Source: Octopus vulgaris (lineage: Eukaryota). From it: 64,000 nucleotides of DNA. The stretch lies in the NCBI GenBank assembly GCA_951406725.2, contig OX597833.1:61380001-61444000 (forward strand), given 5' to 3'. Shown one piece after another: positions 51,601-54,600 of this stretch. How positions within the stretch are numbered: position 1 is the first letter of the stretch; every line of letters begins with the position of its first letter. A model generated the notes under the pieces. That model ran no database searches. It saw only the letters and a list, made by a program, of their open reading frames with translations, and had not been told where the DNA came from. The translations under genes and the position numbers were made by a program.

Positions 51601-54600
51601 AAATATATACATACATACATACATATATATATATATATATATATATATATATATATATATGTATGTATGTATGTAATTATATGAATCTGTGTTTGTGTGT
51701 GTGTGTATGTATATATACATACACAAACACATATATGTATGTATGTACGTATGTATGTAATTATATGACTGCGTGTGTGTACTTTAGTCAAAAGGCAGTA
51801 AGTGATCCTTGGATTACAGTTTTCGACTTACTTTCAAGTGGGTCGATGCCATTCTTGCTGTCCAACTTCCCACGGAAATTGGTGCCGAGCTAGAAACAGA
51901 GAAAGTAAGGAGAGTTGCACTGAAGAATATGGCATGGTTAGCATTTGTCAAAGAATTTAATAAACAAAAGAGTTTGTCAGCCTCTTAGAGTAACCAGGAT
52001 GAAAAATGGTAAATGTTATGTTTTGTGGAACCAGAACACACACACACATACACACACGCACACACACAATTCTGCTCCCACATACACATATGTATTCATA
52101 CATATATATGAACATGCACACACACACACACACACACATAAGTACGTGAGATGCACAATTACACACACACACATGCATGCATGCACAAATATATAAGTAC
52201 ACAATTACACACATATACATACATGTACATACACACACTTATAAGGTATGACACCATTGGTATAGCAACAACAACAACAAAAACAGCAGTGGAGGCGCAA
52301 TAGCCCAATGGTTAGGGCAGCGGACTCGCGGTCGGAGGATCGCGGTTTCGATTCCCAGACCGGGCATTGTGTGTGTTTATTGAGTAAAAACACCTAAAGC
52401 TCCACGAGGCTTCAGCAGGGGATGGTGGCGGCCCCTGTTGTACTCTTTCACTCCAACTTTCTCTCACTCTTTCTTCCTGTTTCTTGTCCCCGACTTTCTA
52501 TGCAACTGCTGAGCCTGGATGCGCATTCATCCATCCATCGATGCTCTCGGTGTCGGGGGGTTGACCTGCTTTCTCTTCTATGGGTCTTACAAATAGCAAA
52601 GGACCACGTTTCAGACTTCTCCCATCTTGCGAGCTCTGGGACAAAGACCATTCACTCAACAGCAACAGCAGCCGTCCAAGACTTTGGACCTGGAGATCTC
52701 CATTTCCAGCGACTTCGAGGGCCACCTCCCAGTGGTGTCGGGTATCAACGAAGAGCCCTCGACTACAACAAGAGGACCAAAGTTTGTTTTTTTTCCAAGG
52801 TCTGGGGTCTCCCGCCCCTAAACCCTCGTCCATAACATTCATATCCATATTTCTAAAATAATATCGATTCAAAGGAAAACCAAGCACTTACTTCTCTCCG
52901 AAGAAGCAATGAGCCGCAGACAGGACCCACTGGTCATTAATTAAAGAACCGCCACACCAATAAGTTCGGTAGACAGAGAATATTCCCAAAATTTTTTTAA
53001 TCTCTGTTTTGGATTGTAAAGAAACCAGCCATGGTCTCATGCCTTCTTCGTAGGAATGGCCACCAATTAATGCCATCGATATTGGGTACTGATTCTCTGT
53101 CACATTGGGCCCTGGTAGAAAGAAAACAAGTATTTAATAAATTTTAATAAATATCAGGTTTCGTGGTGTAGTGGTTATCACGTCTGCTTCACACGCAGAA
53201 GGCCGCGAGTTCGAGCCTCGCCGAAACCTGGGAAGAAAATGGCGGTGCCCCAGCATGGCCACAGCTCGTATACTGAAACTAGATAAAATATTAAAAAAAT
53301 AATAAAAAATTGCACAGGCATGGCTGTGTCATAGGAAGCTTGCTTCTCAACCACATAATTCTGGGTTCAGTCCCATGGTGTGGCACCGTGGGCAAGTGTC
53401 TTCTGCTATAGCCTCACGCTGACCAAAGCTTTGTAAATGGATTTGGTAGACAGAAACTGAAAGAAGCCTGTTGTGTCTGTGTGTCTTTGTGTCTGTGTTT
53501 GTCTCCTATCATCACTTGACAACTGTCATTGATGTGTTAACTTAGTGGTTCAGCAAAAGAGACTGATAGAATAAGTACTAGGCTTAAGAAATAAGTCTTG
53601 AGGTCAATTCATTTGACTAGAACCCTCCGAGGCAGTGCTCCAGCGTGGCCATAGTCAAATGACTGAAACAAGTAAAACAAAGAATAAAAGAATGGATATG
53701 TAGGTTTTAAATTTTGGCAGAAGGCCAGCAAGTTCAGGAGAGGGTGGAAGAGAATTATATTTACCCCAGTGTTTAACTGGTACTTATTTTATAGATCCCG
53801 AAAGGATGGAAAGCAAAGTCGACCTCAGCGGCATTTGAACTCAACAGAAAGCCAGAAGAAATGCTGCAAAGCATTTTCTCTGGATTCTGCCAGTACACGG
53901 CCTTATAGTAAATAAATAGGTTAAAATAATAATATATAGGTATGACGTTAAACTGCATCCAGTATTGAGGCCCTCGTTTGGGAGTTCCAGGCTTTTGAGG
54001 AGAGTTGAACCACCTCTTAATCATTATTGCTCTCAGATCTACCCTGAGCCAGAGCTGTAGCACCTATTAGAGTCCTGGATACGGGTTAATTAGCATATCA
54101 TGGATTTCCCTCCTGAAGAAAGTCTCTCACAGACAGCCTAACAGATCTAGGGCAGGTGGGACCCTTCAGCTCTTTAGCAGCTCATCCAAGAGAAGGTAAC
54201 TCTATACAGGTCTTACATCCCAATAACTACCAAGCTCATGGCACTCCTATCATATTTTAACTTCTCATTATCTCACCTAGAATTACTTCCCTTTCCATAA
54301 TTCTCTGCCATGGGAGCTCTTTAGTCTTACAAGTTACAAAGTACGAAAAAGGAACCAGTATAATTTCTAAAGTGGTTGGCATTAGGAAGGGCATTCAGGT
54401 GCAGAAACTGTGCCAACCTTGAGACATTAGAGCAAGATGACATCTGCTGACTGGCTGAGTTCTATTGAATTCTCCAATTCGTAACAATATAGAAGGTGGA
54501 CATAAAATGATGATGATATACATACATGTGCACACACACATAAAGATATATATATATATATTCCCTCAAATAATAACTATTATATATATATATATAATTA

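Follow-up and report, generated by a model that had tools for sequence, protein, structure and literature searches.

A pre-tRNA-Val(CAC) copy on a two-hairpin LINE tail in Octopus vulgaris and the hairpin-foot junction of small-RNA/LINE chimeras

Chimeras that join a small RNA to the 3' part of a LINE are already known. U6/L2 and U6/Mon-1 chimeras were described in platypus, and U6/L2, U6/RTE and U6/AnolisSINE2 chimeras in Anolis (Doucet et al. 2015, PMC4476161). From the accessible parts of that paper, they resemble the octopus copies described here in having a sense small-RNA head, in many cases truncated at its 5' end, fused to a short segment of a stringent LINE or of its SINE, and in target duplications that are short or absent. 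However, the heads in those parts are snRNAs only, the LINE piece is given as 'a short L2 sequence', and no fixed junction, solo-tail hot spot or pre-tRNA and 5S heads are mentioned; the one CR1 case is left unresolved. Human U6/L1 and tRNA/L1 chimeras (Moldovan et al. 2019, PMC6789731; Law and Burns 2025, 10.1101/2025.02.02.635956) also bring together a small RNA and the 3' portion of a LINE as a single insertion. As far as the available text of these papers goes, the L1 portion differs in its truncation from case to case, and most of the tRNA/L1 cases (21 loci) consist of tRNA halves in antisense orientation, whereas the octopus heads are whole pre-tRNAs or their 3' parts, with trailers, in sense orientation and attached at a single junction point.

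Two SINE families of passerines, TguSINE1 and PittSINE, have a tRNA head directly on a hairpin-bearing CR1 tail (Suh et al. 2017, PMC5729268), the same layout as here, and a template-switch origin has been proposed for them. As presented in the accessible sections, they are amplified families whose founding is deduced, whereas the octopus genome holds many unamplified founding-type events, the copy studied here being itself unamplified. Two further systems bear on how such a junction could form. In vitro, an R2-clade reverse transcriptase copies to the 5' end of its template, adds bases and jumps to a new 3' end (10.1101/2021.04.30.442027); we liken the octopus LINE to this enzyme, for which jumping was demonstrated in vitro, whereas here it is predicted from junctions. 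The stringent LINEs ZfL2-1 and ZfL2-2 are recognized through a 3' stem-loop (Hayashi et al. 2014, PMC4176376) and share with the octopus LINE a conserved 3' stem-loop and terminal repeats. The octopus tail differs in having two hairpins, with predicted binding, and a truncation hot spot that is absent from the accessible ZfL2 account (PMC4176376).

Within the openly searchable literature we found no report of these chimeras in octopus, and a term search of the whole text of the O. vulgaris repeat paper (PMC13282606) gave nothing on chimeras, truncation or tails. Nor did we find a report of a fixed, hairpin-defined junction common to solo tails and to pre-tRNA, U6, 5S and SINE heads, a statement on which supplements and subscription papers may bear.

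The tRNA-Val(CAC) locus and its tail

The locus (53153-53309) lies in the window, a stretch of 64,000 nt of O. vulgaris contig OX597833.1 to which all coordinates refer; L followed by a number denotes an individual locus. The features of the locus and its surroundings are:

52894-53111, - strand: exon of the host gene, which encodes a trypsin-family protease; the chimera is intronic and antisense to it
53153-53156, + strand: remnant of the pre-tRNA 5' leader, its last 3 bases common to four terminator-bearing Val(CAC) copies
53157-53229, + strand: tRNA-Val(CAC), with 0 mismatches to L006 and 1 each to L004 and L007
53230-53234, + strand: 3' trailer of 5 nt, as in L004 minus the oligo-T of L004
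53235-53238, + strand: four junction bases, identical in L026, either LINE-derived or added without template
53239-53283, + strand: core of the LINE 3' tail, formed by hairpins 1 and 2
53240-53261, + strand: hairpin 1, intact
53262-53275, + strand: hairpin 2, with three adjacent substitutions at 53270-53272
53284-53309, + strand: A-rich terminal repeats of the LINE subfamily
53314-53690, + strand: an older, decayed tRNA-type SINE that ends in a sister two-hairpin tail

By comparison with its relatives in the genome, the locus was confirmed as a copy of pre-tRNA-Val(CAC) joined to a two-hairpin LINE 3' tail of about 55 nt, which supports the proposal of a minimal chimeric tRNA-LINE retrocopy made in an earlier, sequence-only reading. 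Head and tail are on the same strand, with the small RNA 5' of the LINE 3' end. ARAGORN places tRNA-Val(CAC) at 53156-53230, and Rfam gives a tRNA at 53157-53229 with 65.8 bits. The cloverleaf, described in that reading as fully paired, is nearly so: Rfam marks one non-standard pair, in the D stem. The end of the leader matches L004, L006, L007 and L009, and the trailer matches L004. The tRNA being identical to L006, the internal promoter of the head is intact. Position 73 in tRNA-Val is usually A. The T that had been singled out as unusual at this discriminator position is present, but 7 of 7 other Val copies compared share T73; it is therefore a trait of the Val tRNAs of this genome, not a defect of the window copy, and we rejected it as a sign of decay. 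An oligo-T terminator, a criterion for a functional tRNA gene, is absent close behind the tRNA, as the same reading had it. The first T4 on the + strand is at 53705, 475 nt downstream and beyond the older SINE, and a read-through transcript from the tRNA would cross that SINE as far as this T4.

The LINE tail is real, its core having 13 matches within the window at up to 3 mismatches (0.21 expected), and it is 91% identical over 47 nt to the LINE at L104. The fragments at 12085 and 32500, to which it had been likened, belong to a sister LINE family and not to its donor. Hairpin 2 keeps 3 of its 5 pairs, owing to the three adjacent substitutions, and through this damage the copy has probably lost its mobility. 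A candidate target duplication of 7 nt (53145-53151 with 53300-53306) overlaps the A-rich tail and cannot be told apart from it.

The neighbouring exon matches PF00089 (E 3e-12), and its acceptor AG (53112-53113, minus strand) is 44 nt from the tRNA, in agreement with the antisense position about 45 nt from a protease splice acceptor noted earlier. Within the exon, an insertion separates the N-terminal motif of the protease from the catalytic His. The recent origin that had been suggested is partly supported, by the unmutated tRNA and by open ORF2 copies of the donor LINE, but contigs from 4 of 4 sequencing runs (3 organism labels) contain the start of the tRNA and, at the left flank, no empty site. 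The contigs of this empty-site search ended 17-20 letters past the queried stretch, none spanning the whole element, and their left flank is about 1% divergent. By itself, the window copy is ordinary; it is one case among many small RNAs joined to this tail at a fixed point across the genome, a pattern that the earlier reading missed.

The genome searched for relatives comprises 2.8 Gb in 227 contigs. A 28-nt core of the tail has 8,527 exact copies in it, most of them downstream of a LINE with an ORF2 of 1038-1039 aa. The donor ORF2 (1039 aa) has the domains PF14529, PF03372 and PF00078, which places an APE endonuclease and a reverse transcriptase in one ORF, and open copies exist at about 90% identity. 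A Pfam search of the 182-aa LINE end and of the ORF1 piece found no domain. Among the 120 ORF2 homologues listed, the sole species-named octopod match is Argonauta (62%), and none is a clade-named reference. From its C-terminal motifs we tentatively take the LINE to belong to the CR1 group.

Two adjacent hairpins are predicted in the LINE tail, in one SINE tail and in two sister tails. Across 10 aligned tails, 93% of cells are paired, a value reached by 0 of 500 shuffles, and 3 of 13 pairs have changes on both sides; because the ten tails are related sequences, this support for the hairpin pair is suggestive. The hairpins alone fold weakly (z between -1.3 and -1.6 for the tails of the LINE and of the window copy). 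By analogy with zebrafish L2, ORF2p would bind the two 3' hairpins of LINE and SINE RNA. The tail was also considered as a self-cleaving ribozyme and rejected: compared by eye with the consensus, its P1-like loop has too few bases for an HDV fold and it lacks the core of a hammerhead. In the window as a whole, Rfam detected no ribozyme. Rfam microRNA matches at chimera loci were discarded as microsatellite noise below gathering scores.

A fixed junction at the foot of hairpin 1

A search for oligo-T followed by the tail returned 234 places, and 88 of the first 100 were examined (three known Val chimeras and nine uninspected places were left out). A tRNA, U6 or 5S 3' end with a score of at least 12 lies just upstream of 41 of these 88 junctions (38 after removal of self matches); among 200 control T-runs, none had such a match. 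ARAGORN and Rfam confirmed heads derived from tRNA-Leu, Glu, Ala, Val, Ser, Asp, Lys, Thr and Gly, from U6 and from 5S. They are copies of precursors, since genomic trailers are kept and, in L033, where the head is a pre-tRNA-Leu, an intron is kept too. Trailers could be traced to intact genes elsewhere, from L339 to L350, from L338 to L361 and from the window copy to L004.

Taken together over 40 of the 41 headed loci (L140 was dropped, its tail end not being parsed), the sequences on the two sides of the insert resemble each other to a degree that none of 20,000 permutations reached (3-mer cosine 0.567 vs 0.391; longest shared word 7.25 vs 4.79); often both flanks are one and the same microsatellite. 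Heads were scored as 5'-truncated in 15 of 40, a rough count in which two matched the wrong isotype and three Glu heads scored as full are truncated by eye. With flanks this similar, many heads 5'-truncated and trailers matching intact genes, the class was inserted as one unit.

The oligo-T pattern itself sets the position of the junction in this sample, which is therefore no independent proof of a hot spot; for this reason the junction was tested by two unbiased routes. The first was anchored on hairpin 2 (8,259 copies) and sampled the first 90 copies on contig C1 (its first 31 Mb), with A+T-rich flanks blurring boundaries by 1-3 nt. The 5' boundary falls at -4 to +1 of the foot of hairpin 1 in 34 of the 90, an enrichment of about 120-fold per base. 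Another 15 start at +2 to +10, the majority at the inner-stem foot, and 4 at +11 to +23, all 19 being inside the hairpins; 9 start at -5 to -200 and 28 further upstream. Most of the 34 tails that start at the foot are solo tails, of which we estimate about 3,100 genome-wide. The sister LINE (about 73% protein identity, 1,335 copies) was sampled at 30 loci in the first 55 Mb of one contig: by eye, 8 ends are at the foot, 6 inside, 15 long and 0 between, with 1 unclear. The eight foot joins include a 5S head and a SINE head.

The second route started from the RNA side and followed 70 of 185 U6 3' ends. Twenty-four of the 70 join a tail at the hairpin foot, corresponding to 19 events once 6 tandem duplicates are collapsed. 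In 23 the partner is a SINE, one of three, joined at its 5' start, and the other 23 are genes or other joins. Where U6 is joined to the donor LINE, the join is at the hairpin foot in 8 of 8 cases and on a longer piece in 0 (P 6e-4). Many U6 junctions contain extra bases. Of all 40 tRNA-Gly ends, 4 are joined to a tail, at its hairpin foot or close by; 1 is joined to a SINE start and 2 to other SINE or repeat sequence, and most of the remainder resemble genes with terminators. A few U6 and tRNA ends join the inside of SINEs or another LINE (L233, L249, L257, L334), so that the hot spot is not the only place of jumping.

Tails and LINE ends provided several side observations. Solo tails and LINE ends (L193-L222, L268-L327) very often lie within TA-type microsatellites. 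At L009, L019, L020 and L338, tRNA copies, some of them mutated, sit on the 5' start of a full SINE in the manner of the U6-SINE joins.

Origin of the junction

For the window copy, we consider it probable, on balance, that a short tail RNA was copied by the LINE reverse transcriptase, which would have jumped to the 3' end of a pre-tRNA-Val so that both were inserted as one unit. In the steps that we propose, the ORF2p of the LINE identified here would hold both 3' hairpins of a LINE or SINE RNA. This RNA would often end at the 5' foot of hairpin 1, where the hot spot is observed, most likely by trimming or cutting back to the protected hairpin; 5'-to-3' trimming halted by a hairpin would fit, because the boundaries sit at the 5' feet of stems. 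Target-primed copying of the short RNA would give solo tails, about one third of 3' ends. Past the 5' end of the RNA, the enzyme would sometimes add a few bases and then may engage a Pol III RNA of the nucleus by its free 3' end, whether a pre-tRNA with its trailer, U6, 5S or SINE RNA. We favour end-to-end jumping on three grounds: U6 is attached to true SINE starts no less readily than to the hairpin foot, extra bases are common at junctions, and the R2 reverse transcriptase adds bases and jumps in vitro (10.1101/2021.04.30.442027). At heads that keep their oligo-T, Pol III would stop ahead of the tail; where it is missing, as in the window copy, transcription would continue through the tail, and such heads are candidate founders of SINEs.

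The main rival, which we regard as rather unlikely, places the fixed point on the DNA side. Full-length RNA would be copied, the enzyme would let go after copying through the hairpins that it binds, or the cDNA would be trimmed to its own hairpin, and a template switch would follow. Such a process predicts the same stem-foot boundaries and requires no short RNA, and template switching is the usual account of U6/L2 (PMC4476161) and tRNA/CR1 (PMC5729268) chimeras in the accessible parts of those papers. It does not agree well with U6 heads that are found at the outer foot only, and neither at the inner-stem cluster nor on longer pieces of the donor LINE, or with U6 being equally often at true SINE 5' starts, which points to run-off at an RNA end. 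A stall caused by structure, moreover, would put boundaries on the 3' side of stems, and just 4 of the 90 are found there.

Ligation before insertion appears improbable. Here the LINE RNA would be cut by an endonuclease at the hairpin foot and small RNAs joined to it by RtcB or a similar ligase, a fixed cut giving a fixed junction, and U6, which RtcB joins to L1 in human according to the available text of PMC6789731, is a frequent head in octopus. The same text has the reaction require a cyclic phosphate and a 5'-OH and be blocked by a 5' triphosphate (PMC6789731), whereas in octopus the heads include pre-tRNA and 5S ends, the acceptors include SINE transcription starts, and extra bases are common. 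The chemistry of the ends also bears on this rival. Pre-tRNA and 5S ends carry a 3'-OH, and ligation-type ends are not expected on pre-tRNA, 5S or SINE starts.

We consider it very improbable that the tRNA is a resident gene into whose trailer a solo tail was inserted independently, common as solo tails are and although the tRNA has no mutations and was seen in each of the 4 runs. An interrupted trailer would have left its remainder behind the tail, and because no oligo-T is present there, independent insertion is disfavoured at the window locus. Chance would place about 0.03 tails beside genes genome-wide, assuming 2,000 genes, against the roughly 109 tRNA, U6 or 5S chimeras that we estimate, and truncated heads and matching flanks point to insertion of the whole unit.

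A young, amplifying tRNA-Val SINE family with the window locus as member or master is hardly tenable, even with an intact promoter, no terminator, a LINE tail and 9 further Val-plus-tail loci among 44 pattern matches (30 of 44 inspected), and we rejected it: the window junction has no second copy, hairpin 2 is damaged, and the nine loci, two of them 5'-truncated, vary in anticodon, trailer and tail subtype and are therefore separate events.

Single copies and possible SINE founders

Short-tail copying followed by a jump to the pre-tRNA thus remains our preferred reading, for a locus that is not the nascent SINE proposed at the outset, if a family is meant by it. The T-arm variant of the window copy occurs at 5 places in the genome, 4 of which have oligo-T and no tail, and its combination with the tail, at 1 place only, is never shared by a second copy. 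An effectively exact-match search of the genome found no second copy of its hairpin-2 variant. Being single and damaged in its second hairpin, the copy is not an amplifying SINE; judged by its layout, with the terminator absent, it is of the SINE-founder type.

The jump route has likely already yielded one SINE subfamily, by a tail swap: the head of the SINE at 52290-52520 of the window is joined to the donor LINE tail, at the hot-spot point, in 703 exact junction copies (L328-L333). Other joins of this SINE head with the tail (L025, L388) are separate events.

Studies of SINE origin have long asked how a tRNA head comes by precisely the minimal LINE tail, and the argument has mostly been made in reverse, starting with families that are already complete. 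Because founding-type events are frequent and independent here and have the same junction, this step becomes open to counting and testing, as to the RNA end that is present, the jump of the enzyme, and the chimeras that amplify, namely those without terminators. We raise tentatively, as a possibility that we take seriously without favouring it, that the genome may contain a built-in SINE factory in which LINE RNA is routinely reduced to a discrete tail of 55-60 nt bounded by the hairpins, which is copied first and afterwards welded to any available Pol III RNA. If true, this would account for the shortness of SINE tails and for their start just before the recognition hairpin. One genome would then keep the series from solo tail through single chimera to a 700-copy family, and new tRNA, U6 and 5S copies would spread with their own terminators.

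Several chimeras and arrays stood out individually. A tRNA-Leu head with an apparent intron was seen at L033, L153 and L155, which would mean that unspliced precursors were copied. U6 on another short hairpin tail, unrelated in appearance and perhaps from a different LINE family, was found at L252. Behind position 520 of L371 and L372, a tRNA-Gly with its terminator is followed immediately by a 5S rRNA copy; these may be tRNA-5S jump products or part of a mixed array. Stacked U6 copies lie head to tail at L186 and L190, one of them after a tRNA-Lys-like 3' end, and are possibly the result of serial jumps. One U6/SINE-tail chimera recurs six times at a spacing of about 20 kb (L170-L175), as a tandem duplication. 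Finally, T occupies position 73 in every tRNA-Val copy seen, with anticodons AAC, CAC and TAC (L004, L006, L007, L009, L013, L018, L028).
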